From Candidatus Methylomirabilota bacterium (GTDB lineage Bacteria > Methylomirabilota > Methylomirabilia > Rokubacteriales > CSP1-6), in assembly GCA_046723845.1 (NCBI GenBank), contig JBKOVG010000150.1:5491-69490 (forward strand): DNA of 64,000 nucleotides. Reading direction: 5' to 3'. The position numbers were made by a program, and so were the translations under genes. The notes beneath the pieces were generated by a model. That model was not told the origin of the DNA. It made no database searches and was given only the letters and a program-made list of their open reading frames with translations. Shown here piece by piece: positions 7,425 to 39,131 of this stretch (the stretch's first letter is position 1; each line of letters opens with the position of its first letter).

Positions 7425-7801
7425 GGCAAGAACTGGGACACCAAGTCGGGGCACCCTCGCACGGTGCCGCTGACGCAGCGGGTGGGCGGAAGCGCCCCTT
7501 CACCGGGCTGCGCTACCGGGACGTGCGGAAGATCTGGTACCAGGCCTGAGACCACCTTGGCTTCGCCGACGACCCGCAGTGGGTCATCCACATGCTGCGC
7601 CACACCTGCCCCTCGCGCCTCGTACAGGGTGGCGCAGAGATCCAGTACGTCATGAAGTGGCTCGGCCACGCGACCATCAGCATCACGATGCGGTACGCGC
7701 ACCTAGCACCAAAGAGCCTCGACAAGCTCACGGCGATCCTCGACCAGCAGCCCGAGGAGAAGCCGCGCACGCTGGCCGTGGTCAAGGAGCAGAAGGGATG
7801 A
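7425..7801 (+). pseudogene. Tyrosine recombinase (phage integrase) C-terminal remnant with frameshifts and an internal stop. It marks the left end of a degraded integrative element.
   Basis: Three frames together give KSGHPRTVPLTQRV / FTGLRYRDVRKIWYQA* / HMLRHTCPSRLVQGGAEIQYVMKWLGHATISITMRYAHL. These are the catalytic box I, box II (HxLRHT) and LGH..TxxYxH tyrosine motifs of a tyrosine recombinase. No intact N-terminal domain is present. Confidence 0.7.
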
Positions 7802-7883
7802 GCGACACCCGAGTGTGGAAAGCCGCCCCGCCGTGCCCGCCTCTGACATCAGAGCGGGTGCTGGCGTGGCTGAGGAGTAAGTG

Positions 7884-8045
7884 ATGTTCTGGACCCGCAA
7901 GACGAGGGCAGACGGGCACTGCTACGCCTGCGCCGCCGAGGGGACGTGCGACTGCCGTGTCTGCGAGGAGAAGCGCGTCCTCGCCGCTCCGATTGTGGCG
8001 CAGGATGTGGCGCAGGCGCCACCAAGTAGCGCCACCGATCGCTAA
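7884..8045 (+). CDS. Small Cys-rich protein (53 aa), zinc-ribbon-like, in the integrative island
   Basis: ATG preceded by GAGGAG at a 5-nt spacing. Translation MFWTRKTRADGHCYACAAEGTCDCRVCEEKRVLAAPIVAQDVAQAPPSSATDR contains CxxC...CxCxxC. It falls below the 60-aa ORF-track cutoff. Confidence 0.35.
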   Translation: MFWTRKTRADGHCYACAAEGTCDCRVCEEKRVLAAPIVAQDVAQAPPSSATDR

Positions 8046-8196
8046 GATTCAACTACTTGCAGCACCGGAAGTCAGTGGAAGTGAAGTGGCATTCAAGATC
8101 CTCTCGCTGACACGATAGTCTCCCAGAACCGCGCCCTATCTGGTGAATCTGCCGGTGTGGGTGCGGTAGCGAGACCATCGTGTCACGGTATGTCAG

Positions 8197-8637
8197 TTGC
8201 CCCACTGCGCCGACGATCCTCCGTTCTGCTGGCCCGCCGTCCCTTGCGAAGGCCACGAACATCTCCCAGCCCGCCAGCTTCACGTAGCCATGCGTCCGCA
8301 CGATCTCCACCACGACTCCACCACCGATGCTCTTTGGAATCCAGATCAAGGCGGGGCGTTCTGTGGGAAGTGCGCGCTGCCCGCACCGTGGCTCTCGCGT
8401 GACACCCTCATGGACTGGCTCACGCATCAGGTGCAGGCCGACGAGAGCGTGTCCGATGTGAACCGGGTTGAACTCCGGGCGATCTTGGAGCGGCTCAAGG
8501 CGATGGACCCGGAGGACACGAAGGCTGTCTCAGCATGGCAGCGGTTTCAGGTACTCGCGCCGAAGGTGTGGGACGCCACGAAGCCGGTGCGCGATGCGCT
8601 GATCGGTGAAGCGGTGAGGTACGCGCTGGGCCTCTGA
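8197..8637 (+). CDS. Hypothetical protein (island cargo). Alternative start at 8410 (MDWLTHQ...).
   Basis: The C-terminal half (MDWLTHQVQADESVSDVNRVELRAILERLKAMDPEDTKAVSAWQRF...) has very high GC3. The N-terminal half has CPHC...CGKC spacing. An overlapping antisense ORF (8053-8427) cannot be excluded. Confidence 0.35.
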   Translation: MPHCADDPPFCWPAVPCEGHEHLPARQLHVAMRPHDLHHDSTTDALWNPDQGGAFCGKCALPAPWLSRDTLMDWLTHQVQADESVSDVNRVELRAILERLKAMDPEDTKAVSAWQRFQVLAPKVWDATKPVRDALIGEAVRYALGL

Positions 8638-8918
8638 CAGCCCCACTAGATCGACTACACCACTAGACGGAACCGCCCACCCGTCGTCTTGATGGTCACT
8701 ATCGTTCTCCTCTCAGCTTCTCGAAGATGGACTTCATGTGGGACCACCCTACGACCAGACGTCAGACCTCCAGCGATGCGTGCGGTAGCGCGATGATCGT
8801 GCTGGCGAACACGAGCGCATCGGTGGTGACTTGCGAGGGAGATCCTTCCGCGCTATCGGTTCTGCTTTCCTTCTTGACGAGGCAGCACGAAGTTCTCAGG
8901 GTGTGCTAGGCTCTCGCC

Positions 8919-9581
8919 GTGCTGAGGTATTACTGGCGTCTGCTGCGAGCGCTCCCGACGCTCCTCCGCACGTCAACATCTCGCGTCAACGGCACCGTGT
9001 TCCTCGGAGGCGCACTGCTGACCGCTGTTCTGCCCACGCTGACGGCGAGATGGTCGATCACGCAGGGGCCGACTGCCGACCGGGTGAAGGCGTTCGCCGC
9101 GAGCTTCCCGCTGTGGTGGCCGCTCGTACCGATCAGCCTGCTGGTCCTGCTAGGTCTCCTCAAGGCGAACTACGAGCTTCACGCGAAGGTCGAGCGCCAG
9201 CGTAACCGACTGCGGGCGAAGCTGGATGATCGCGTGAAGCGGCATCGGGATGCGGAGGAGCTTGGTCGCCTTCGCAAGACCATGAGGAAGCGGTACTACG
9301 AGTGGCTTGAGGAACAGAAGTCGCACATCCCCGGACCGGACCCAGCGAAAGACCGGGCGCTCGACTTGCAGAACCAGATCGCGGACCTGCTGGAGAGGCG
9401 GTACGGGTTCGACATCAGAGATCGGTTCCTCACTGCTGACGATGCCGACTCTCAGCATCCCTCTGCTTTGGTCACTGTTTTGGTCTTGACCCGTGAGTAC
9501 GCGGGTCGCACCAAGCGTCTGAGGGGGATCATCCGCGACATCCGATCCGGCAAGATCAGGCGCACGGTAGAGTGGGGATGA
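8919..9581 (+). CDS. Hypothetical membrane protein with two TM segments and a charged coiled-coil C-terminal domain (island cargo)
   Basis: GTG start. TM helices VFLGGALLTAVLPTL and LWWPLVPISLLVLLGLL, followed by an Arg/Lys/Glu-rich helical region. No recognisable family. Confidence 0.45.
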   Translation: MLRYYWRLLRALPTLLRTSTSRVNGTVFLGGALLTAVLPTLTARWSITQGPTADRVKAFAASFPLWWPLVPISLLVLLGLLKANYELHAKVERQRNRLRAKLDDRVKRHRDAEELGRLRKTMRKRYYEWLEEQKSHIPGPDPAKDRALDLQNQIADLLERRYGFDIRDRFLTADDADSQHPSALVTVLVLTREYAGRTKRLRGIIRDIRSGKIRRTVEWG

Positions 9582-10228
9582 AGAGAAGTGTCTTGCCCGC
9601 GCTACGAACAGGAGCGGATCGGTGAGGACTTCGAGGGGAGATGGTTCCGCTATCGCGAGGAAGAATCAGGTTGACGTGTTCTGCTGCGTCGGCCCTGTCT
9701 TGGACTCGCATTCCTTCTCCTAGATCTTCCGGTCGAGGGTCGCGCGCACTGCACCGATCTGTTCCTCAATGGCGCGACGCCCGCCTTCAAGATGGAGAAG
9801 GTCCGGTGGGCGAGGAGATGACGGGCATGGCTGAGTTGAGCATCGAGGCGCCCGCGCTCAGCTTCAAGCTCAACGATGATGTGGCGGATGTCGGAGATGG
9901 TGAGCGTGGAGAAGCTGGGGCGGTGGTCCGGGTGATGTGCTGGCGTGGTGCGCTCCTCTCAGGTTGACTGCAGTGGACGGCCAGCGTAGCAGGGAGCGCA
10001 CGGCTGAGACCATCGGGAGAATCGCTCACGTAGTTCTACGCTCGCGGAGGAGGCCGATGGCTCCTAGCGACAGGGACGATCACGCAGGTGAGAAGGCGAT
10101 GGAGGCCCTCATGTCGTATCCCCTTGTGGACTGCTCGGGTCTTCTGCTACCGTCGAGATGCCAGTCGGAGATGAAGCGCAGTCAGATCGGGACGTTGCCA
10201 CACGCGACTCTACTCGCCGTCATGTTGT

Positions 10229-12113: not shown

Positions 12114-12569
12114 TCACCGGCCGAGACTCACGTCGTCGGGCAGCTCGTTCACGTCGTCGGGCCGCCGGGGAAAGTGCTGGCCGAGGGCTTCGCCCACCTC
12201 GGCGATGGCGTGCAGCAGGCCCTCCCGCGAGCGCTGCTGACGCAGGTGATCGCCGACGGCGTCAACCAGCCCCCGCCAGTAGGCTTCGCCCACGCGCTCG
12301 TGGATGCCCGCGTCACCGATCACGGCCAGCTTGCGATCCGTGACGGAGATGTAGATGAGCACGCCGTGGCGCTCCACCGTGCGATGCATCCCGAGCCGCT
12401 CGAAGACCTTGATGGCCCGCCGGAGCGCGTCGCCCTCGCAGGCGTGGTCGAGATGCACGCGCACCTCCGCGGAGGTGCGGGTCTCTGCCTGCCTCACCGC
12501 GCGCGCGATGGACGCGAGATCGTCCTCGGAGAGAAAGGCCGTGACCCACCCGGGATGCCGCCCCATCAC
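12114..12569 (-). CDS. TPM-domain protein (cytoplasmic; TLP18.3/Psb32/MOLO-1 phosphatase-like fold)
   Basis: …ETRTSAEVRVHLD…HGVLIYISVTDRKLAVIGDAGIHERVGEAYW… This is the usual third gene of lemA-TPM-TPM triads. ATGA overlap with the upstream TPM gene. Confidence 0.65.
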   Translation of the reverse strand: MMGRHPGWVTAFLSEDDLASIARAVRQAETRTSAEVRVHLDHACEGDALRRAIKVFERLGMHRTVERHGVLIYISVTDRKLAVIGDAGIHERVGEAYWRGLVDAVGDHLRQQRSREGLLHAIAEVGEALGQHFPRRPDDVNELPDDVSLGR

Positions 12570-13351
12570 CAGTCCCCGCTCGCGCCGCCGCCGCCGAAGC
12601 TGCCCCCGCCCCCGCTGAAGTCACCGCCGCCCCCGCCGCCTCCACCGCCGCCGAAGTCTCCGCCCCCAAAGCCGCCCGGGAAGATGATAGGCCCGCCCCA
12701 ACCGCGCGAGCCACCCGTCCAGCCCTGCCGCCGCACGTGTGACTGCCGGAGCGCGGGAATGATGATGGAGAAGAGACCGGCGACGACGATGAGGAGGAGG
12801 ACGCCGGCCATGACGCCGCGGCCGGCGGAACCGCGAGGGGGTGGCGCGGCTTGGGCGTGATAGGTGCCCGCGATCACCTGCTCGATGGCGTCGAGGCCGG
12901 CGGCGATCCCGTCGGCGATCTTGCCCTCGCGGAAGCGCGGGCCGACCACCTGCCGCAGGATCTGGCTGGACAGCGCGTCGGTGAGCTTGGGCTCGAGGCC
13001 GTAGCCGACCTCGAGACGCATCTTCCGGTCGTCCACGAAGACGAGAAAGATGACGCCGTTGTCGAGCCCCTTCTGCCCGATGCGCCAGGCCTGGGCGAGA
13101 CGGATGGAATAGTCCTCGAGATTTTCCCCCTGGAGCGATCGGAAGATGGCGACCACGATCTGGTTGCTGCTCTCCCGCTCCCGCGACCGGAGCTTGTCCT
13201 CCAGCCGCTCGCGCTCGGCGGCCGAGAGCACCCCCGCGTAGTCGTTGATCCGGTGATCGGGAGCGGGGGGAATGGGCAGGGCGGCTGCGGCGGGCGCCCC
13301 GAGGGCGGCGAGGACGAGCAGCGCCGCGAGCCAGTGGTGACGCGGGCGCAC
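12566..13351 (-). CDS. TPM-domain membrane protein (YgcG-like) with a Gly-rich C-terminal tail
   Basis: Signal peptide, TPM domain (…NQIVVAIFRSLQGENLEDYS…GVIFLVFVDDRKMRLEVGYGLE…), a TM helix, then a GGFGGGDFGGGGGGGGGGDFSGGGG tail. Confidence 0.7.
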   Translation of the reverse strand: MRPRHHWLAALLVLAALGAPAAAALPIPPAPDHRINDYAGVLSAAERERLEDKLRSRERESSNQIVVAIFRSLQGENLEDYSIRLAQAWRIGQKGLDNGVIFLVFVDDRKMRLEVGYGLEPKLTDALSSQILRQVVGPRFREGKIADGIAAGLDAIEQVIAGTYHAQAAPPPRGSAGRGVMAGVLLLIVVAGLFSIIIPALRQSHVRRQGWTGGSRGWGGPIIFPGGFGGGDFGGGGGGGGGGDFSGGGGSFGGGGASGDW

Positions 13352-13382
13352 GATGCCGGGCCTCGCCCCCTCGCTGAGCCTC

Positions 13383-13976
13383 CTAGAACTTCACCTTCGG
13401 CGCCGTCTCGGCACCGGGGGTCGACTCGAAGAAGGGCTTCTCCTTGAAGCCGCGCAGGGAGGCGATGAAGCTCGCGGGGAAGACGCGCACGCGGAGGTTA
13501 TAGTCGCGCACCGCCTCGTTGAAGCGCTGGCGCTCCACCGTGATGCGGTTCTCCGTGCCCTCGAGCTGGCTCTGCAGGGCGAGGAAGTTCTGATTGCTCT
13601 TGAGCTCGGGATAGCGCTCCACGGTAACGAGGAGGCGCGAGAGGGCGCCCCCCAGCTGGTTCTGCGCGTCCTGGAACTTCTTGAAGGCGGCGGGATCGTT
13701 GAGGAGCTCGGGGGTGGCTTTGATGCTGCCCGCGCTCGCCCGCGCCTGCGTCACCTCCTCGAGGACGGTGCGCTCCTGGGTCGCGAAGCCCTTGACCGTC
13801 TCCACGAGATTGGGAATGAGGTCGGCGCGGCGCTGATACACGTTCTGCACCTGGGCCCACTTCTCGTTGACGGCCACGTCGGCACCGACGATCTGGTTGT
13901 TGACCCCGATGCCCCATATGAAGGCGATCACCACGATGACAACGAGCACGCCCACCACGATCAGCCCAGTTTTCAT
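13383..13976 (-). CDS. lemA: LemA family protein
   Basis: N-terminal TM helix followed by NEKWAQVQNVYQRRADLIPNLVETVKG…ERYPELKSNQNFLALQSQLEGTENRI…, typical of LemA. It starts 21 bp after the stop of the Ehr large-subunit gene. Confidence 0.8.
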   Translation of the reverse strand: MKTGLIVVGVLVVIVVIAFIWGIGVNNQIVGADVAVNEKWAQVQNVYQRRADLIPNLVETVKGFATQERTVLEEVTQARASAGSIKATPELLNDPAAFKKFQDAQNQLGGALSRLLVTVERYPELKSNQNFLALQSQLEGTENRITVERQRFNEAVRDYNLRVRVFPASFIASLRGFKEKPFFESTPGAETAPKVKF

Positions 13977-13997: not shown

Positions 13998-15563
13998 TTA
14001 GAGGTCGTTGCCGGAATAGGACTGGTTGAAGGACTTGTTGCAGAGCGGAAAGTCCGGAACGATGTTCTTGAGCAGCGCGTAGGAGAGGGGCCGCCAGTTG
14101 AGAAAGGACGGATCCATCACCTTGACCCGGTAGAGGGCTCCCGCCGCGTCGGCCATGAGCCAGTGGATGATGGCCCCACGCCATCCCTCGACCATGCCCC
14201 ACGCAGGCTCGAAGGCTGGCACCGCTCCCAGCCCGGTCTTCACCGGGCCCGCGGGCAAGTTCTCCACGGCCTGACGGATCAGGCGGGCGGACTCTCTCGC
14301 CTCCTCCACGCGCACGAGGGTCCGGGCCTTGACGTCGCCCGAGGTGAAGACGGGAACGCGGAAGGCGAGGTCGCCGTAGGCCGCGAAGGGATGGTCGCGC
14401 CTCACGTCGGCGTCGATCCCCGAGGCGCGCGCCACGTAGCCCGACACTCCGTGATCGCGGGCGATGCGGGTGGCGAGCGTCCCGGTGCCCTCGAGGCGAT
14501 CCAGGACCAGGCTCGTGCCGAGGGCCAGGGCCACGATCTCCTCGAAGTCCGCCAGGGCCTCCTCCACCAGGACGGGCAGGTCCAGATCCGGGGGCAGATC
14601 GTGGCCGACTCCGCCCGGGACGATGCCCCCCCGGAGCAGCCGGCTCCCCGTGAGGCGCTTGTTAAGGCGCAGGAGGCGCTCGCGGATCCGGAAACAATGG
14701 GCGTGGGCCACGGCGAAGCCGGTGTCGTTGGCGATCATGCCGAAGTCCGCCACGTGATTGTAGAGCCGCTCCATCTCGAGCAACACCACGCGCAGGTAGC
14801 GGGCGCGATCCGGCACGACGGCGCCGGTGGCCGCCTCGAGCGCCTGACAGTACGCGAGGGCGTGTCCCACCGTCGTGTCGCCCGACACGCGCTCGGCCAA
14901 CTCGACGCCCGCAGCGGGGGCGCGTCCTTCGAAGAGCTTCTCCGTGCCCTTGTGCGTGTAATAGAGACGCGCCCGCATGTTGATGATCGTCTCGCCCACC
15001 ACCGAGAAGCGGAAATGCCCGGGCTCGATGACACCCGCGTGCACGGGACCGACGGGAATCTCGTAGACCCCCTCTCCGCCCACCTCCACGAACGGAAACG
15101 GCCGCCCGTCGTCGACGAAATCACCCGGCTGCGCGTCTTTCCGGAGGGGAAAGTAGTCGGCGGGCCAGAAGCCGTGGCGCACGAGCGGCCGCGGATCAGG
15201 ATGGCCGGTGGCCGCGATGCCGAGCAGGTCATAGATCTCCTGCTCGAAGAGCGAGGCGGGATGGTGGAAGGTCCCGAGCGAGGTCAGCGAGGGGTCTCCG
15301 GCGGGCAGGACCTTCCACGCGTGGAGGAACCAGTCCTCGCGCGGATGGGCGAAGAGATAGTACACCTCGAAGGCCCCGAGGTCCGCCCGGCGGTCGACAC
15401 CGACCATCAACCGGAGCTCGACGCCGTGCTCGGTCCGGAGGATCTGCGCCAGCTCCTGCATCTCGCCCCGTCCGACCGCGCCATGGATCTCGCGCCCGCG
15501 TACGAGGCGCGCCTCCGCCAGGCGCGGAGCGAGGGCGGCCATGACGGCCTGCAGGTCCCTCAT
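13998..15563 (-). CDS. Fused NuoC-NuoD / HycE-like large subunit of a group-4-hydrogenase-related complex that has lost all NiFe-ligating cysteines (Ehr-type large subunit)
   Basis: ATG at 15561-15563 (MRDLQAVMAAL…). The NuoC-like N-domain is followed by the EPGHFRF…YTHKGTEKL core. Where hydrogenases have ER[IV]CG[IV]C this protein has ERVSGDTTVGH. Where they have DPCxxC it has DPSFLNW. ATGA overlap with the next gene. Confidence 0.8.
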   Translation of the reverse strand: MRDLQAVMAALAPRLAEARLVRGREIHGAVGRGEMQELAQILRTEHGVELRLMVGVDRRADLGAFEVYYLFAHPREDWFLHAWKVLPAGDPSLTSLGTFHHPASLFEQEIYDLLGIAATGHPDPRPLVRHGFWPADYFPLRKDAQPGDFVDDGRPFPFVEVGGEGVYEIPVGPVHAGVIEPGHFRFSVVGETIINMRARLYYTHKGTEKLFEGRAPAAGVELAERVSGDTTVGHALAYCQALEAATGAVVPDRARYLRVVLLEMERLYNHVADFGMIANDTGFAVAHAHCFRIRERLLRLNKRLTGSRLLRGGIVPGGVGHDLPPDLDLPVLVEEALADFEEIVALALGTSLVLDRLEGTGTLATRIARDHGVSGYVARASGIDADVRRDHPFAAYGDLAFRVPVFTSGDVKARTLVRVEEARESARLIRQAVENLPAGPVKTGLGAVPAFEPAWGMVEGWRGAIIHWLMADAAGALYRVKVMDPSFLNWRPLSYALLKNIVPDFPLCNKSFNQSYSGNDL

Positions 15564-17020
15564 CGTCCCGCGATCTCCACGATCCGGTCCAGGAGCGCCG
15601 TCACCGGCGCGGGCACGCTCAGCCCGAGCAGGACGAGGGCGGCCGCGCAGACGCCGAGCGGCACGACGCCCCAGCCGCCGTCCCCGCCCGAGCGCACTCC
15701 GGCCGGGGGGGCGCCATAGAGCATGTGGTTGAGATGGACGAGCAGGGAGACGAAGGCGACCACGAGCAGGGCCAGCACGACCGCCATCAGCCATCCCTGC
15801 TCCGCCACGAAGCCCGCCCGTACCAGCGTGAACTTGGAGAGGAACATGCCGAAGGGCGGCAAGCCGACCAGGGCGATCATGCCGGCGGCGAACAGCCCGC
15901 CCGTCCACGGCATCGCCCGCAGGAGCCCGGATACGCGCGAGATCTCGGGCGTGCCGTAGCGGTCGAGGATGCGTCCCGAGAGGAAGAACATCATGGACTT
16001 CGACAGGGTGTGGTTCACGAGGTGGAGCATGGAGGCGAACACGCCGAGGGGGCCCAGAGCCAGCCCGAGGCAGATGAGGCCGGTGTGCTCGATGCTGGAA
16101 TAGGCGAGGAGGCGCTTGTACTGCCGCTGGCCGAGAAGCGACAAGGCGGCGATGGCGAGTGAGAGGAGGCCGAGGCCGATCAGGAGCCGGTCGGAGAACC
16201 CGTGCCCCACCGAGGCGTCCGCCACGGCCTTCCAGCGGACGATGGCGTACAGCGCGACGGCCAGCAGCACCCCCGACATCATGGCGGACAGTGCCGACGG
16301 CGCCTCCGAATGCGCGTCTGGCAGCCACGTGTGCATGGGCGCGAGACCCGCCTTCGTGCCATAGCCGATCAGGACGAAGACGAAGGCGAGCTCGACCACC
16401 TCGGGGTGCAGCAGCGGCGCGCTCGCCAGGAGCACCGTCCAGTTCAGCGCGTAGTCCCGGCGGCCCGCGAGCGTCACGAAATCGAAGTAGCCGAGGACGG
16501 TGCCCACGAAGGCCAGCGCGATGCCCACCGATCCGATCAGGACGTACTTCCAGGAGGCCTCGACCGAGGCCTTGCTGACGGACAGCGGAATGATGACGGC
16601 CGAGGTGATGGTGGTCGCCTCGATGGCGATCCACATCACGCCCACGTTGTTGGCGGTCACGGCCACCAGCATGGTGAACGCGAAGAGCGGCGCGAAGACG
16701 CGGAAACGCCGGACCTGTTCCGGCGAGTAGTGCTCACGCCCGGCGAGCCCCGGCCCGAGGAGCGCCGCCAGCGCCGCCACGAACGCGACGCAGACGGCGA
16801 GGAGCGCCGAGAGCGCGTCCACGCGGAAGAGCGTGGTGGGACCCCAGGTCGGAGTCCAGCCGCCCAGCACGAGCGCGGCCAGCCGCAGCGCGGCCAGGAG
16901 CGGCACGATCCCCAGCACGCTCCAGAGCGTCCGGGCCGCTCGCCCGCGGGGCGGCAGCACCAGTGCGGCGAGGGCGGCCAGGAGCGGAGGCAGGAAGAGG
17001 GAGAGGAAGGACTCGCTCAC
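15560..17020 (-). CDS. NuoM/NuoN (HyfF/Mrp-antiporter-like) proton-translocating membrane subunit
   Basis: About 14 TM segments and the conserved …GYGTKAGLAPMHTWLPDAHSEAPSALSAMMSG… antiporter motif. Confidence 0.8.
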   Translation of the reverse strand: MSESFLSLFLPPLLAALAALVLPPRGRAARTLWSVLGIVPLLAALRLAALVLGGWTPTWGPTTLFRVDALSALLAVCVAFVAALAALLGPGLAGREHYSPEQVRRFRVFAPLFAFTMLVAVTANNVGVMWIAIEATTITSAVIIPLSVSKASVEASWKYVLIGSVGIALAFVGTVLGYFDFVTLAGRRDYALNWTVLLASAPLLHPEVVELAFVFVLIGYGTKAGLAPMHTWLPDAHSEAPSALSAMMSGVLLAVALYAIVRWKAVADASVGHGFSDRLLIGLGLLSLAIAALSLLGQRQYKRLLAYSSIEHTGLICLGLALGPLGVFASMLHLVNHTLSKSMMFFLSGRILDRYGTPEISRVSGLLRAMPWTGGLFAAGMIALVGLPPFGMFLSKFTLVRAGFVAEQGWLMAVVLALLVVAFVSLLVHLNHMLYGAPPAGVRSGGDGGWGVVPLGVCAAALVLLGLSVPAPVTALLDRIVEIAGR

Positions 17021-17024
17021 GTCG

Positions 17025-17684
17025 TCACCTCCTCAGCCGGTTGAGCTGCTCGACGTCGATGCTCTCGAACGTCTCGTGGATCTGGTACACGAACACCTGC
17101 ATGACGATGAATCCTAGGAGGACGTCGAGGAAGACGCCGATTTCCACGATGAGCGGGATGCCGTGGGCGCCCAGCACGGCCAGGAGGGCGATGCCGTTCT
17201 CGAGCATGAGGAAGCCCACTACCTGCGTCAGGGCCTTCTTCCGGCTCACGATGACGAAGAGGCTGACGAAGACGAGTCCCATGGCCAGCGGCATGCCCGT
17301 GCGTGTCGGCAACTGGCTGACGGAGACGAGCGGCCGCGTGACCACATAGGCCAGGAGCACCAGGAGTCCCCCGATCAGGAGCGAGGTGGCGGTGTTGACG
17401 TAGGGCTCGAGCTCTCGTTCGGTGCCGAACTGCACCGTCATGCGCCGGAGGAGGACGGGGATCCCCACGCCCTTGATCAGGAGCAGCAGGGCGGCCACCG
17501 CCCAGAGCTGCCAGTCGCCCGAGAACCAGCCGACCGTGGCCGTGGTGGCGGCCAGCGTCACGGACTGCATCGTGAATGCTCCGACGTGGGCCGTCACCCC
17601 GCGCCGCCAGAGCATCCCGAACCCACCGAGCAGCACGAGGGCCGAGCCGCCCACCGAGAGATGGGAGACGAGCTGAGGGCTCAT
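17025..17684 (-). CDS. HyfE-like (extended NuoK-like) membrane subunit
   Basis: ATG at 17682-17684 (MSPQLVSHL…). 219 aa, about six TM segments, …FLMLENGIALLAVLG… The longer ORF to 18650 is a spurious extension. Confidence 0.7.
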   Translation of the reverse strand: MSPQLVSHLSVGGSALVLLGGFGMLWRRGVTAHVGAFTMQSVTLAATTATVGWFSGDWQLWAVAALLLLIKGVGIPVLLRRMTVQFGTERELEPYVNTATSLLIGGLLVLLAYVVTRPLVSVSQLPTRTGMPLAMGLVFVSLFVIVSRKKALTQVVGFLMLENGIALLAVLGAHGIPLIVEIGVFLDVLLGFIVMQVFVYQIHETFESIDVEQLNRLRR

Positions 17685-18622
17685 CGCAAGAGGAAAGACG
17701 CGGTGACGGCCAGGAGGGCCAGGATGAAGGAGGCGCTCAGCAGCTCGGGCACGCGGAAGAGGCGGAGCTTCGCGACGTGCGTCTCCACGAGGGCGACCAC
17801 GCCGCCCAGGGCCAGGAGCTTGAGGGTAAGCGTGACGGCGGCCCAGAGGAGCGCTCCCGGTGCGAGAGTCAGGGCCACTCCCCACGGGACGAAGAGGTTG
17901 CCCAGCAGGGTGAAGAAGACGAGCAGCTTGAGGGCGGCGGCCCATTCGATCAGGGCCAGGTAGCGTCCGGAGTACTCGAGGATCATCGCCTCGTGGATCA
18001 TCGTCAGCTCGAGGTGCGTCGCCGGATTGTCCACGGGCAGCCGCCCCGTCTCGGCCAGCGTCACCACGAACACGGCCGCGAAGGCCAGGACGTGCCCCGG
18101 GGCCAGGGCCTCGGCGGGCGTGGTCAGCGTGCGCGAGGCGATCCGGCCGAGATTGGTCGAGCCGGCAGACCACGCCAGCGCGAAGATGGCCAGCGCCATC
18201 GTCGGCTCGGCCAGCGCCGCCACCGTCATCTCGCGACTCGCCCCCATGCCACCGAAGGGCGAGCCCGGGTCGAGGCCGGCCAGGGCGAGGACGAACGTGC
18301 CGAGCAGCAGCAGGTACACGACCACGAGGAGGTCGCCCGCGCCGTCCAAGGGCAGCGGCACGGCCAGGAGCGGCACGAGCAGCGTGACGGTCACCGTGCT
18401 CCCGAAGACGATGAAGGGCGCCGCCCGGAAGAGCCACGAGGCATTGCTCGAGACCACGACCTCCTTGGCGAAGAGCTTGCGGAGCTCGAGGTATGGTTGC
18501 CAGGGCGGCGCGCCCCGGCGGTTCTGGAGGCGAGCCTTCATCCAGCGGATGGCGCCGACCAGCCCGGGGGCCAGCAGCAGCGCCACCGCTGCTTGGGCGA
18601 GCGCGAGCAGCCACAGCCTCAT
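17681..18622 (-). CDS. NuoH / HycD-like membrane subunit
   Basis: ATG at 18620-18622 (MRLWLLALAQ…IRWMKARLQNRRGAPPWQPYLELRKLF), a typical NuoH N-terminus. ATGA overlaps at both ends. Confidence 0.8.
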   Translation of the reverse strand: MRLWLLALAQAAVALLLAPGLVGAIRWMKARLQNRRGAPPWQPYLELRKLFAKEVVVSSNASWLFRAAPFIVFGSTVTVTLLVPLLAVPLPLDGAGDLLVVVYLLLLGTFVLALAGLDPGSPFGGMGASREMTVAALAEPTMALAIFALAWSAGSTNLGRIASRTLTTPAEALAPGHVLAFAAVFVVTLAETGRLPVDNPATHLELTMIHEAMILEYSGRYLALIEWAAALKLLVFFTLLGNLFVPWGVALTLAPGALLWAAVTLTLKLLALGGVVALVETHVAKLRLFRVPELLSASFILALLAVTASFLLR

Positions 18623-20658
18623 TGCGCCCCAGCCACGACGAGCCAGCCAAGGAGGAGCAGGAGAGCGGCCACGAGGTATGTCAGGTAGGCGTGCACCGAG
18701 CCCGACTGGAGCGCAAGCATGCGCTCGGACCACCGTCGCACCCGCGCGAGCACGGGGGCGTAGAGGTAGCGCTCGAACCACGGCACGATTGTGGCCCGGT
18801 AGGAGATCGACTGGATGAAGTAGCGCGAGCCCGGGTGGAAGTCGACGCTCACGTCCTCACGGGGGCGGTACAGGGCGGCGAAGATCCGGCGCAGCGGCTC
18901 AGCGAAGGCGGTGGCGGTGTACTCCATGCGCGGCGTCTGCACCACGCGCCCGCAGCCCCACGTCTCGCCCACGCGCACGGGGCGGCGCGCGGCGAGGGTC
19001 CTCACAGCCAGCCAGGTCACGAGGACGACGAGGCCGAGCCCCGCCCCCACGAGCATCGGCGACATCTGGGCGAAGCCTGCGGGCGTCTGGAGAGCAAGCC
19101 CCGCCGTGAAGGTGGGCGCCACCGCCGCCGGCCCCAGCCCCAGCAGCGGCGCGACCGCCAAGGAGAGCCGCGGCGTGATGGCAAAGGCGCCGGCGCTCAA
19201 GGCGAGGCAGGCGACGGCGAGCACGGCCATGCCGGTGCGCATGGGCCAGGCCGCCTCTCGCGCGCCTCCGGCCTCGGGTGAGCGCGGAATGGCGAGGAAA
19301 GTGATGCCGAAGGCCTTGACGAAGCAGGCGGCACAGAGTCCCGCGGTCAGCGCCAGCATCCCCAGGGCCAGCACCATGAGCACCGCCACGAGAGGCGAGG
19401 GTGCGCCGATGCCCGGCAGGAGCGCCTGGATCAGCAGCCACTCGGAGACGAAGCCGTTCAGGGGCGGCAGCCCCGAGATGGCGGCCGCGCCCACGAGGAA
19501 GAGCGCGGCGGTCCACGGCATGCCCCGGATGAGCCCACCCAGGTGATTCATGTCCCGCGTGCCCGTGGCCTGGAGCACGGCGCCCGCGCCGAGGAAGAGG
19601 AGCCCCTTGAAGACGGCGTGGTTGACCGTGTGATAGAGCGCCGCCACGAGGGCCAGCGCGGCGGCCGCCGGCATCTGGAGGCTCCCGAAGAGCAGGCCGG
19701 CGCCCACGCCCATCGTGATCAGCCCCACGTTCTCGACGGAGTGGTAGGCAAGGAGACGCTTAAGGTCGTGCTCCATCAGGGCGTAGAGCACGCCGAGCAG
19801 GGCCGACACGGCTCCGATCGAGAGGACGAGACCACCCCACCAGGCCGGACCGCCACCGAGGAGATCCACGCCGACACGCAGCAGGCCGTAGATGCCCATC
19901 TTGATCATCGCACCCGACATGAGCGCCGACACGTGGCTGGGGGCCGCGGGGTGCGCGCGCGGCAGCCAGACGTGCAGGGGAATCAGCCCGGCCTTCGATC
20001 CGAAGCCGAGCAGCGCGAGCACGAAGACTGCACCGCGCGTCCGCGCGGGCAGGGCGGCCGCGGCGGCGCGGAGATCTGCGAATCCCCCGGAGCCGCCCGG
20101 CTGGAGCAGGAAGAAGGCGCCGAGCAGGCACACGAGGCCGAGCTGGGTCATGCCGAGATACCACTGGCCGGCGCGCACCACCTCCGGCTCATCCGCCTCG
20201 GTGATCACGAGGAAGTAGGAGCTGACGGACATGCCTTCCCACAGGAAAAGGAAGGTGAGCGTGGCATCGGCGAGGGGGACGAGGCTCATAGTCAGCAGGA
20301 AGACGTTCAGCATCACGCCGACCTGGCGGAGGGCGGCGTGTCCGTCCCACGCGCGCGAGTACGCGGCGCCGTAGAGCGCCGCCGGCGCGGCGACGAGGGA
20401 CGTGAGGGCGAGGAACACGGCGCCGAGTGCGTCGAGGCGGAAGGCCAGTCCGCCCAGCGGGCCAAGGAGCTCCGGCACCGCGAGGGCGATGCTCCCTCCC
20501 CCCACGCATGCCACCATGGCCAGCGCGAGCCCTGAGATGGCGCCGACGACGGTGCCCGCAGCGGAGGCCCAGCGGGCGAGCGCGCCCGCGCCGAGGGCGA
20601 GGGCCGCCGCGGCGCCCGCAGCGTAGGCGCCGACCATGAGAAGGAGGAGAGCGCGCAC
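18619..20658 (-). CDS. NuoL / HycC-HyfB-like antiporter-type membrane subunit
   Basis: Starts at GTG 20656-20658 (alternative ATG at 20637), directly after the small-subunit stop. …HSVENVGLITMGVGAG…HAVFKGLLFLGAGAV… The upstream in-frame extension to 20862 is spurious. Confidence 0.8.
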   Translation of the reverse strand: MRALLLLMVGAYAAGAAAALALGAGALARWASAAGTVVGAISGLALAMVACVGGGSIALAVPELLGPLGGLAFRLDALGAVFLALTSLVAAPAALYGAAYSRAWDGHAALRQVGVMLNVFLLTMSLVPLADATLTFLFLWEGMSVSSYFLVITEADEPEVVRAGQWYLGMTQLGLVCLLGAFFLLQPGGSGGFADLRAAAAALPARTRGAVFVLALLGFGSKAGLIPLHVWLPRAHPAAPSHVSALMSGAMIKMGIYGLLRVGVDLLGGGPAWWGGLVLSIGAVSALLGVLYALMEHDLKRLLAYHSVENVGLITMGVGAGLLFGSLQMPAAAALALVAALYHTVNHAVFKGLLFLGAGAVLQATGTRDMNHLGGLIRGMPWTAALFLVGAAAISGLPPLNGFVSEWLLIQALLPGIGAPSPLVAVLMVLALGMLALTAGLCAACFVKAFGITFLAIPRSPEAGGAREAAWPMRTGMAVLAVACLALSAGAFAITPRLSLAVAPLLGLGPAAVAPTFTAGLALQTPAGFAQMSPMLVGAGLGLVVLVTWLAVRTLAARRPVRVGETWGCGRVVQTPRMEYTATAFAEPLRRIFAALYRPREDVSVDFHPGSRYFIQSISYRATIVPWFERYLYAPVLARVRRWSERMLALQSGSVHAYLTYLVAALLLLLGWLVVAGAQ

Positions 20659-20660
20659 GG

Positions 20661-21173
20661 CTAGGAGCGACCTTGCCTGAGCGCGGCGAGGATGCCCTGG
20701 AGGATCTGCGCGGGCTCGGGAGGGCAACCGTCCACGAAGACGTTGACGGGGATCACCTTCTCCACGCTTCCGACCACCGCGTAGCTGCCCGCGAACACGC
20801 CGCACGTCCGCGCGCAGTCGCCGACCGCCACCACCAGCTTCGGCTCGGGAGTCGCCTCCCACGTCTTCCGCAACGGCACTTCCATGTTGCGCGTGACGGG
20901 CCCGGTGACGAGGAGCAGGTCGGCGTGACGGGGAGAAGCCACGAAGTGGAAGCCGAAGCGCTCGCTGTCGTAAACGGGGCTCGTGAGGCCGGTGATCTCG
21001 ACCTCGCAGCCGTTGCAGGAGCCCGCGTCCACCTCGCGAATGCCAAGGGCGCGACCGAAGAGACGCCGCGCTTCTCCATCGACCTCATGAACCAGATGCA
21101 CGACTTCGGAGTCACCGGCGGGAAGTGCCTCGGTGACGATCCCGGTTCGAAGGATCTTGGAGAGAAGACCCAT
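20661..21173 (-). CDS. NuoB / HycG-like small subunit that retains its 4Fe-4S cluster cysteines
   Basis: GSCNGCE…GDCARTCG…DGCPPEP: all four cluster-N2-type cysteines are present. It is the first gene of the cluster. Confidence 0.85.
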   Translation of the reverse strand: MGLLSKILRTGIVTEALPAGDSEVVHLVHEVDGEARRLFGRALGIREVDAGSCNGCEVEITGLTSPVYDSERFGFHFVASPRHADLLLVTGPVTRNMEVPLRKTWEATPEPKLVVAVGDCARTCGVFAGSYAVVGSVEKVIPVNVFVDGCPPEPAQILQGILAALRQGRS

Positions 21174-21282
21174 CTAGCGGAGCCGATACCTCCACCATCC
21201 GATCATCACGATGCCTACTATACGCTACGCGTCCTCGTGCTCCGTCAGCGAACTCCATCGACAGCCGGGCGGGGCCGATCGG

Positions 21283-38003: not shown

Positions 38004-39131
38004 CTATCGTGCGAGTTGTTTACGAATAACCGGACCTATTTTGTTAGCTAAAGCAACGGGCATCCACCGTGTCCACATATTCGAGAATTGCGACATCATT
38101 GACGAGGACGAATCAAATGTGCGCAGTGCGTCCTGCTGCTTCGACATCAGGTAATAATGAGAATGGGGAATGAACGTACATCCCCATTTTCTTTTGAAGT
38201 GCTCCTGACCGTCGTACCGTACGGAGCCGAAATCAAAGAAGGAATAACCATTCTCGGCTGCAAATCGGATAAATTCCCAATGGATCAGATCATTCGGTCT
38301 CAAATTCCAATATGCGGGATCTGAAACGATGTTGATGATGCTGATCCTGCGGCCACACGCAAAACCCAGCAGACCCGCCACCTTGATGGAATCCTTCATG
38401 GCCCAGAAAATCTTCATCTTATCGCCGAATGCTTTATAGCAGTCCAGGTAGTACCGCAGATTATGCGGAGGCACGCCGAGGCGCTTCATCGATTCGCAAT
38501 ACAGCGAGAAGAAAGGCCCGCGTAGCGTCGCCTCGTTGCATTCTTCTTTTACGGCTAGACCGGAGTTTCTTGCCTTGTTGACGGCCTTCCGGGCTTCATA
38601 ACTGATTTTTCGCCGCCAGATCTCATCAACGTTTGAAGCCAACTCCAGGTAAGCTAGTAAATGCGGATGTCGGCCAGCGAATAGCTCTTCGTTGAGACTC
38701 GACGGGATTCCGTGGTTGCCATTGATCTCCAGCGTCACGTCTTTAAATTTCTTTGCGATGTGCGCGCGCAGAGAGCCCACGATTTCTCTGATTTCATCGA
38801 GATCCAACTCGGCCGCGACCAGCAGTCCGCCATACTCAGAAAATGGCTGGCTGATCAATTTGCGGCCGAACAAAAGGCTCCGGGTGAGTGCCATCGGAAC
38901 CACCGCAACGATCTCGCTGCCTTTGACGAAACAAATGCGTTGCGAGCGGAAGCCATAACACTCCGTCGCCATCCCGTAGTTGTACAGGTGCGCAAACCTG
39001 CCCTCGACGTTGCTCTCGACGAACGCGTCCCAGGTTCCTTGATCCTGCCAATCGTCTCTTATCCGAGGCAACTCCCTCTGCGAAGAGTGGACCCTCCCAG
39101 CACCGTTAGGTGACGTTGCTTCCATAAACAA
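38004..39131 (-). CDS. FemAB-family / CelD-like GNAT-fold acyltransferase (similar to PEP-CTERM/exosortase-associated FemAB proteins) on a low-GC insertion
   Basis: 375 aa at roughly 48-50% GC in a ~70% GC context. The FemAB-like two-lobed acyltransferase signature is spread along its length (…YNYGMATECYGF…FEYGGLL…LRYYLDCYKAFGDKMKIFWA…FDFGSVRYDGQEHFKRKWG…). Confidence 0.6.
   Translation of the reverse strand: MFMEATSPNGAGRVHSSQRELPRIRDDWQDQGTWDAFVESNVEGRFAHLYNYGMATECYGFRSQRICFVKGSEIVAVVPMALTRSLLFGRKLISQPFSEYGGLLVAAELDLDEIREIVGSLRAHIAKKFKDVTLEINGNHGIPSSLNEELFAGRHPHLLAYLELASNVDEIWRRKISYEARKAVNKARNSGLAVKEECNEATLRGPFFSLYCESMKRLGVPPHNLRYYLDCYKAFGDKMKIFWAMKDSIKVAGLLGFACGRRISIINIVSDPAYWNLRPNDLIHWEFIRFAAENGYSFFDFGSVRYDGQEHFKRKWGCTFIPHSHYYLMSKQQDALRTFDSSSSMMSQFSNMWTRWMPVALANKIGPVIRKQLAR

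Follow-up and report, generated by a model that had tools for sequence, protein, structure and literature searches.

Six tightly packed genes on the minus strand fill positions 13998–21173 of the 64-kb stretch of Candidatus Methylomirabilota DNA analysed herein (the window; approximately 70 % G+C), and almost certainly encode an energy-converting hydrogenase-related (Ehr) complex. This identity, already proposed in a first-pass annotation of the sequence, holds for every component considered: a group 4-type large subunit devoid of NiFe-ligating cysteines, a [4Fe-4S] small subunit, HycD- and HyfE-like subunits, two antiporter-like subunits, and neither a NuoI subunit nor a NuoEFG module. As a canonical NiFe(CN)2CO centre cannot be bound, the complex is neither a canonical hydrogenase nor complex I. 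The family, Ehr/Hyq, is already described and widespread, and the window contributes a new member from an uncultured lineage. Ehr was named by Coppi (2005) as Ech-hydrogenase-related in Geobacter sulfurreducens (GSU0739–0745), whilst Marreiros et al. (2013) surveyed these complexes as a ‘missing link’ between group 4 hydrogenases and complex I. They are now routinely reported in metagenome-assembled genomes, with the literature stating that their function is unknown. When identity and function are taken together, an Ehr complex operating as a redox-coupled ion translocator built around a single cluster is the probable reading.

The large subunit and its lost NiFe site

The EhrL-type large subunit (13998–15563, 521 aa) is a fusion of NuoC-like and NuoD/HycE-like portions, matching PF00329 (Complex1_30kDa) and PF00346 (Complex1_49kDa), together with a weak, short match to PF00374 (NiFeSe_Hases). 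Its best solved relative is HycE of Escherichia coli (PDB 7z0s_E, E = 1e-72), which aligns across residues 36–520, whilst Nqo4 of complex I reaches only 1e-47. An AlphaFold2 model built on an alignment of 105 diverse sequences has a mean predicted local distance difference test score (pLDDT) of 95.4; an earlier run with a shallow alignment (74–87 % identity) had yielded values below 50 at the former active site, and was discarded. Foldseek superimposes the retained model on HycE with template modelling scores of 0.95/0.93 and a root-mean-square deviation of 2.1 Å, the runner-up being E. coli NuoCD at 0.89/0.80.

Alignment to HycE, a check that the first-pass annotation had suggested, allows both former metal-binding motifs to be located and their four cysteine positions to be read directly. 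The L1 motif (RxCGxC in hydrogenases) is replaced by ERVSGDTTVGH (residues 224–234; 14862–14894), exactly as originally proposed, with RVCGICGFAH of HycE aligning with RVSGDTTVGH, such that Ser227 and Thr230 occupy the cysteine positions. The L2 motif ([DE][PL]CxxC in hydrogenases) lies at the extreme C-terminus (residues 508–521; 14001–14042) and reads CNKSFNQSYSGNDL, with DPCYSC of HycE aligning with NQSYSG and the cysteines becoming Ser515 and Gly518. The first-pass annotation was thus correct in noting that both L2 cysteines are absent, but had placed the site at DPSFLNW, which is an upstream motif whose HycE counterpart is AATYANW. The protein terminates three residues beyond L2 (NQSYSG-NDL-stop), and hence has no C-terminal maturation extension.

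In an orthologue scan limited to a single genome per species, 80 loci were recovered, the large subunits of which are 64–84 % identical. Not one of these 80 has a cysteine at any of the four NiFe positions. Residues E224, R225, S227, G228, D229, G233 and H234 of the former L1 region, and C508, N509, K510, S511, S515, Y516, G518, D520 and L521 of the former L2 region, are invariant in all 80. Because the Cys-less motifs are so uniformly retained, a sequencing error is excluded, and with it the prospect that a corrected sequence would restore the CxxC pairs; the original claim that NiFe binding has been lost is thereby upheld. The hydrogenase-type proton-transfer loop GPVHAGVIEPGHFRF is conserved, including E180 and H183, as is D280, the counterpart of Nqo4 D139 (Nqo4 residues follow Thermus thermophilus numbering throughout).

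To place these losses more widely, 1.84 billion cluster representatives were searched exhaustively, of which 1218 matched at E ≤ 1e-30, and the 115 nearest full-length representatives (50 %-identity clusters) were used for a motif survey and a neighbour-joining tree. NiFe cysteines are wholly absent from 82 of these, whilst 13 have one to three and 20 retain all four. The partial set (including P0145, P0184, P0197, P0198, P0221, P0225, P0243 and P0245) displays patterns such as CSAG, CCCA and CESG, and may represent intermediates or independent partial losses. Most four-Cys sequences harbour ER[IV]CG[VA]C..SH together with NKSFELCY[SA]C.DR, and the latter is clearly the parent of the Ehr C-terminal motif, NKSFN[LQ]SY[SA]G.DL. 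These four-Cys proteins are the nearest true-hydrogenase neighbours of the window (38–45 % identity), and have in common with it a C-terminus of the form NKSF...Y..DR/DL without an extension, as well as the loop GPxHAGxIEPGHFRF. They differ in keeping all four cysteines, where the window clade has Ser, Thr/Ser, Ser and Gly. They probably correspond to HydDB group 4f (‘Ehf’), next to which the literature places Ehr. Classical HycE types, with DPCYSC and a tail of some 30 residues, are encountered only at 34–35 % identity. In the crude neighbour-joining tree the Cys-less sequences form one large clade beside a grade of four-Cys sequences, with the window inside that clade, an arrangement that fits a single ancient loss of the cysteines followed by a large radiation. 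The published placement, in which Ehr adjoins group 4f, agrees with this tree.

Small subunit, membrane arm and conservation of the cluster

With regard to the remaining genes, open reading frames, Pfam and NCBIfam all agree with the subunit order and coordinates first assigned to the six-gene cluster. The EhrS-type small subunit (20661–21173, 170 aa) comes first, and is followed by an EhrA-type HyfB/HycC-like antiporter-type subunit (18619–20658, 679 aa), an EhrB-type HycD/NuoH-like subunit (17681–18622, 313 aa), an EhrC-type HyfE-like small membrane subunit (17025–17684, 219 aa), an EhrD-type HyfF/NuoM-N-like antiporter-type subunit (15560–17020, 486 aa), and finally the large subunit. Five overlapping junctions had been described; three of these are indeed ATGA overlaps (between the EhrA- and EhrB-type, EhrB- and EhrC-type, and EhrD- and EhrL-type genes), but the remaining two are short gaps. 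The small subunit and EhrA-type genes are separated by 2 nt (TAG CC GTG), and the EhrC- and EhrD-type genes by 4 nt (TGA CGAC GTG), both downstream genes beginning with GTG and the second of these starts being preceded by a GGAGG motif. Despite the two gapped junctions, the packing of the six genes is operon-like.

The small subunit matches PF01058 (Oxidored_q6; 4e-31), and its best relatives in the PDB are HycG (7z0s_G; 3e-39) and MbhJ (2e-37). As initially reported, it retains four [4Fe-4S] ligands, namely C53, C56, C120 and C150, the columns of which align with those of HycG and MbhJ. The first pair is arranged as C-N-G-C, a hydrogenase-type CxxC, unlike the tandem CC of NuoB. Scores against NuoB equivalogs are 81–97 bits, with cutoffs of at least 255, and only the broad subfamily model NF005012 is passed (126.5 bits against 116). 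A fifth cysteine, C124, lies four residues past the third cluster ligand (GDCARTCG, with residues 120–124 encoded at 20802–20816); it has no counterpart in HycG, in MbhJ or in the Hyq-type small subunit. All four cluster cysteines, as well as C124, are present in each of the 54 close orthologues compared.

Three further cysteines, C239, C290 and C508 of the large subunit, fall outside the old NiFe motifs; these are invariant in the 80 close orthologues and variable in the wider clade. Co-occurrence of C290 and C508 exceeds expectation amongst the Cys-less representatives (14/19 versus 27/89; Fisher p = 6e-4, not corrected for phylogeny). The idea that these three residues, together with C124, form a new cysteine-based metal site was considered and rejected as a feature of the family, because none of the four is conserved across the wider Cys-less clade, and C124 is absent from the Hyq type.

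Membrane subunits bear the stamp of hydrogenase-4, as the top NCBIfam models for the EhrA-, EhrC- and EhrD-type proteins are HyfB, HyfE and HyfF, respectively. The EhrA-type subunit (PF00361, Proton_antipo_M) exceeds the cutoff of NF005086 (‘hydrogenase 4 subunit B’; 670.5 bits against 667), and aligns with HycC (7z0s_C; 4e-66) across residues 13–602. Its E141, K222, K253, H343, H347, K351 and E406 show little or no variation amongst orthologues, so that the full set of transmembrane-helix (TM) residues is present, comprising the TM5 Glu, TM7 Lys, TM8 Lys, TM11 His/Lys and TM12 Glu. The EhrB-type subunit (PF00146, NADHdh; 1.7e-41) resembles HycD (7z0s_D; 2e-47), and conserves the acidic residues E139, E191, D198, E205, E211, E216 and E226. 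For the EhrC-type subunit there is a weak NuoK-like Pfam match and a match to the HyfE model NF008556 (1.2e-24) that at 87 bits lies below the cutoff of 136; a search for relatives in the PDB found none, whilst E162 and E181 are conserved. The EhrD-type subunit (PF00361, Proton_antipo_M) scores 419 bits against the HyfF model NF005044, below the cutoff of 610, and has MbsH as its top PDB match, alongside MbhH and MrpD; here E134, K223, H333, H337 and K341 are conserved. Orthologue alignments reveal that a network of charged residues is maintained across the EhrA-, EhrB- and EhrC-type subunits.

What the cluster does not contain is equally characteristic. The first-pass annotation had stated that a NuoI-like ferredoxin subunit and a NuoEFG-type electron-input module are missing, and this is borne out: a NuoI-type CxxCxxCxxxCP motif is absent from all six reading frames of the 64-kb window, and no hyp, hyc maturation, fdh or NuoEFG genes were found amongst the window genes scanned. 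Nor is there a NuoI-type 2×[4Fe-4S] subunit in the clusters of the Hyq-type or Rokubacteria relatives.

Of the 80 orthologous loci, the closest belong to Methylomirabilota/Rokubacteria, with others found in Acidobacteriota, Binatia, Chloroflexota, KSB1, Verrucomicrobia and one cyanobacterium; in total, at least eight phyla are spanned. The six-gene order is the same in every locus with enough flanking sequence, and comparison with the closest locus gives ratios of nonsynonymous to synonymous substitution (dN/dS) of 0.09–0.21 for all six genes. These values indicate purifying selection on every subunit and, considered with the retained membrane charge network and coupling loop, argue for a functional complex and not a relic. 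At eight loci (L010, L011, L014, L017, L019, L034, L045 and L056), an additional HyfB-like gene (about 673 aa) is found in tandem, between the EhrA- and EhrB-type homologues, creating a seven-gene variant like that of Geobacter, with its ehrA-1 and ehrA-2, whilst the window is single-copy. Six loci (L014, L017, L023, L025, L035 and L040) are labelled Nitrosotalea (an archaeon), Vicinamibacterales, Limnocylindria, Acidoferrum, Deferrimicrobiaceae and Verrucomicrobiia, and are nevertheless 73–77 % identical to the Rokubacteria type with the same flanks, which suggests either mis-binning of contigs or a recent horizontal transfer.

Comparison with characterised systems places the window amongst familiar arrangements. 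The published subunit set of Geobacter Ehr is the same, consisting of a NuoL-like EhrA, HycD-like EhrB, HyfE-like EhrC, HyfF-like EhrD, Cys-less EhrL and [4Fe-4S] EhrS, although the window has six genes with a single EhrA, and in its lineage the cluster is preceded by hydantoinase genes and followed by LemA and two TPM genes. In Mycobacterium tuberculosis, the Rv0081–Rv0087 (‘hyc’) operon, described as an EHR complex, has a regulator, Rv0081, followed by hyc-like genes Rv0082–87, the product of which is considered a non-hydrogenase. E. coli formate hydrogenlyase-1 (FHL-1; PDB 7z0s) and hydrogenase-4 (Hyf), both of group 4a, supply the best solved relatives of the small, EhrA-type, EhrB-type and large subunits; the window cluster differs from these in having neither NiFe cysteines nor a C-terminal maturation extension, and has no HycF/HyfH or HycB/HyfA ferredoxin subunits, formate dehydrogenase, hyp or hycI genes nearby. 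The MBS/Mbx complex of Pyrococcus furiosus (PDB 6u8y) provides MbsH, the closest match to the EhrD-type subunit, but comprises 13 subunits, including NuoI-like and Mrp-type components, and its large subunit is distant (3.5e-33).

Proposed mechanism and rival explanations

In the mechanism proposed for this complex, the peripheral module would consist of the small subunit, with its single [4Fe-4S] cluster, and the HycE-fold large subunit, in which a rebuilt pocket (Ser227-Gly-Asp229-Thr230 and Ser515-Tyr-Ser-Gly518) stands in place of the two cysteine pairs. This module would sit upon a Hyf-type membrane arm composed of the HycD-like, HyfE-like, fully equipped HyfB/HycC-like and partly degenerate HyfF-like subunits. 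Given that no NuoI-like subunit is present, a soluble low-potential carrier such as ferredoxin, which would dock at the site vacated by NuoI/HycF, probably donates electrons straight to the cluster. The electron would then move on to an acceptor within the polar pocket, where the large, small and HycD-like subunits meet, with a membrane quinone the leading candidate. Protonation chemistry at the pocket would drive H+ or Na+ along the chain of conserved Glu and Lys residues, in a process that may be reversible. We infer the donor, the acceptor, the direction and the ion; any specific pairing of donor and acceptor is doubtful, even where the general scheme is favoured.

Several observations sit uneasily with this scheme. 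The complex has a single cluster and no NuoI-like subunit, meaning that the electron path must be assumed. The quinone ligands of complex I are absent, as Gly228 stands opposite Nqo4 Tyr87, and the His38 position, in a region that aligns with I179/E180/P181, lacks a histidine. In the EhrD-type subunit the TM8 lysine is replaced by Ala254 (codon at approximately 16259–16261), because of which this second antiporter-like subunit may not be a complete proton channel. No donor or acceptor gene is linked to the cluster, the sole widely conserved neighbour being an ArsR-type regulator. Finally, the literature searched yielded no biochemistry or structure for any Ehr member. As to the TM8 position itself, it is Lys in MbhH, MbsH, MrpD and NdhD, and is also occupied by a residue other than Lys in the Hyq-type homologue of the EhrD-type subunit.

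Some of these same features could suggest that no redox chemistry takes place, with the complex acting instead as a cation/proton antiporter similar to Mrp or as a machine powered by the proton-motive force, and its Fe-S module serving as a structural cap or as a sensor of redox state, O2 or NO. The want of an electron-input subunit and of canonical quinone ligands is in keeping with this, as are the charged residues kept by the antiporter-like and HycD-like subunits, the pairing of the cluster with an ArsR-type regulator in most relatives, and the fact that stress regulates the equivalent M. tuberculosis operon by way of Rv0081, a transcriptional hub. That operon belongs to the hypoxia (DosR) regulon. 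Nonetheless, the cluster cysteines, the proton-transfer loop (E180, H183), D280 and the polar pocket are strictly conserved to a degree that exceeds the needs of a cap, and known Mrp antiporters function without any such module; a purely non-redox role is hence considered unlikely.

Alternatively, the rebuilt pocket (S227-G-D229-T230...H234 and S515-Y-S-G518) could be a new catalytic or ion-binding site. The pocket adjoins both the kept [4Fe-4S] cluster and the proton-transfer loop, and is invariant in 80/80 orthologues; it could be a nickel-cysteine-free site for H2 activation, as has been claimed for Hyq, or a site for another substrate. Whilst distinctly unlikely on present indications, such a site would establish Ehr as a novel class of energy-converting enzymes, beyond a stripped-down relative of complex I.

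The first of these pocket candidates corresponds to a specific and very unlikely alternative, in which the window would encode an ‘endo-hydrogenase’, i.e. a nickel-cysteine-free H2:quinone oxidoreductase whose non-canonical site would oxidise or evolve H2, as claimed for HyqBCEFGI of Azorhizobium caulinodans. Resemblance between the two is considerable, as hyqRBCEFGI encodes the same six-subunit core, with a four-Cys small subunit and a fused NuoC-NuoD protein, HyqG, that is likewise without both CxxC motifs. All six subunits of the window have one-to-one homologues (36–60 % identity) in a cluster of Falsiroseomonas stagni that appears Hyq-type on the basis of gene order, a length of 504 aa for its large subunit, and cysteines at 491 and 497. 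No H2-activating site is known that lacks a NiFe, FeFe or Fe-GP cofactor, and no hyp genes were found amongst those scanned in the window. Gene order is also different, with the Hyq genes running B-C-E-F-G-I and the small subunit last, as opposed to first in the window and in close loci with enough flank, and the hyq operon is under NifA control with its own regulator, hyqR. Of the three conserved HyqG cysteines, C258, C491 and C497, only C491 is kept, as C508 in the window; Q514 occupies the C497 position and A278 most likely that of C258. Hyq is the only member of the family with genetic data, and is claimed to be a reversible enzyme: deletion of the whole hyq operon in A. caulinodans abolished endogenous H2 recycling and microaerobic H2 evolution. 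This evidence is, however, genetic and physiological only, and even its authors regard a NiFe site as ‘uncertain, if not unlikely’.

It is hardly credible that the cluster is a decaying hydrogenase relic devoid of function, despite the loss of the catalytic metal site and the use of the term ‘nonfunctional’ for Ehr in one Geobacter paper. The low dN/dS of all six genes contradicts this, as do intact reading frames, a gene order kept across at least eight phyla, the invariance of the replacement motifs and the very large size of the Cys-less clade, whilst Ehr subunits are abundant in Geobacter proteomes. The chance that the genes are a fragment of a split nuo operon encoding a true NuoCD, as the Pfam domain names Complex1_30kDa and Complex1_49kDa and the NCBI label ‘NADH-quinone oxidoreductase subunit C’ on relatives might suggest, and which the first-pass annotation had named as the alternative to its own reading, is negligible, since NuoD equivalogs score far below cutoff (224.5 bits against 360, and 194 against 459), HycE is the better match by both sequence and fold, the small subunit CxxC is of the hydrogenase type, the EhrA-, EhrB- and EhrC-type subunits match HycC, HycD and HyfE, the quinone-ligand Tyr is absent, and six genes lying between hydantoinase and LemA genes fall short of the 11 or more subunits of complex I, amongst which are NuoA, I, J and K.

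Genomic surroundings and significance for the family

Upstream of the small subunit gene, on the same strand, are genes for hydantoinases A and B, the stop codon of the latter being separated from the start of the cluster by 109 nt (21174–21282, minus strand). This intergenic region harbours a TATAGT-like hexamer and the ribosome-binding motif GGTGGAGG; a scan for a consensus sigma-70 promoter found no match, as did Rfam and tRNA scans, and a terminator scan gave three sites, no more than expected by chance. Downstream, also on the minus strand, Pfam identifies a LemA gene (13383–13976), which begins 21 nt past the large subunit stop codon with GGGAGG in the junction, and two TPM genes (12566–13351 and 12114–12569). 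These three genes (12114–13976) are possibly co-transcribed with the large subunit. The LemA-TPM-TPM trio is located downstream only in some 22 Methylomirabilota-type loci. Hydantoinases A and B, LemA and TPM were accordingly rejected as general functional partners, because this set of flanking genes is confined to close Methylomirabilota relatives.

A broader association is seen for an ArsR-type helix-turn-helix gene (encoding about 117 aa). Amongst loci L010–L080, it immediately precedes the small subunit gene in 35 of 50, and a further seven have it at another place in the locus. It is absent from the window and from its three closest relatives (L069, L006 and L003), where hydantoinase B is found instead. 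Rv0081 of M. tuberculosis is also ArsR-type, with a gene order the same as in those relatives of the window that pair ArsR with the small subunit; the window, without an ArsR gene, differs from it in this respect.

Elsewhere in the window, a FemAB/GNAT-like gene (38004–39131, minus strand) sits in the stretch of lowest G+C (0.59 versus approximately 0.70), and may have been acquired horizontally. A further region of lower G+C (0.62), from 7800 to 10200, contains no convincing open reading frame as judged by third-position G+C, and the frames at 8197–8637 and 8919–9581 have no Pfam match.

Ehr complexes are common, with the Cys-less type constituting 82 of the 115 nearest full-length representatives, and close relatives of the window complex are found in soil phyla of high abundance; the literature likewise counts the M. 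tuberculosis operon as part of the family. In evolutionary terms, Ehr lies between the group 4 hydrogenases and complex I. The window adds support for a functional family: its genes are under strong purifying selection, the motifs that replace the cysteines do not vary, and both the coupling loop and the membrane charge network are retained. Cys-less relatives in public collections (P0296–P0327) nonetheless carry source names such as ‘Ni,Fe-hydrogenase III large subunit’, ‘NADH-quinone oxidoreductase subunit C’ and ‘hydrogenase expression protein HypE’, and labels of this kind mislead the inference of H2 metabolism from metagenomes.

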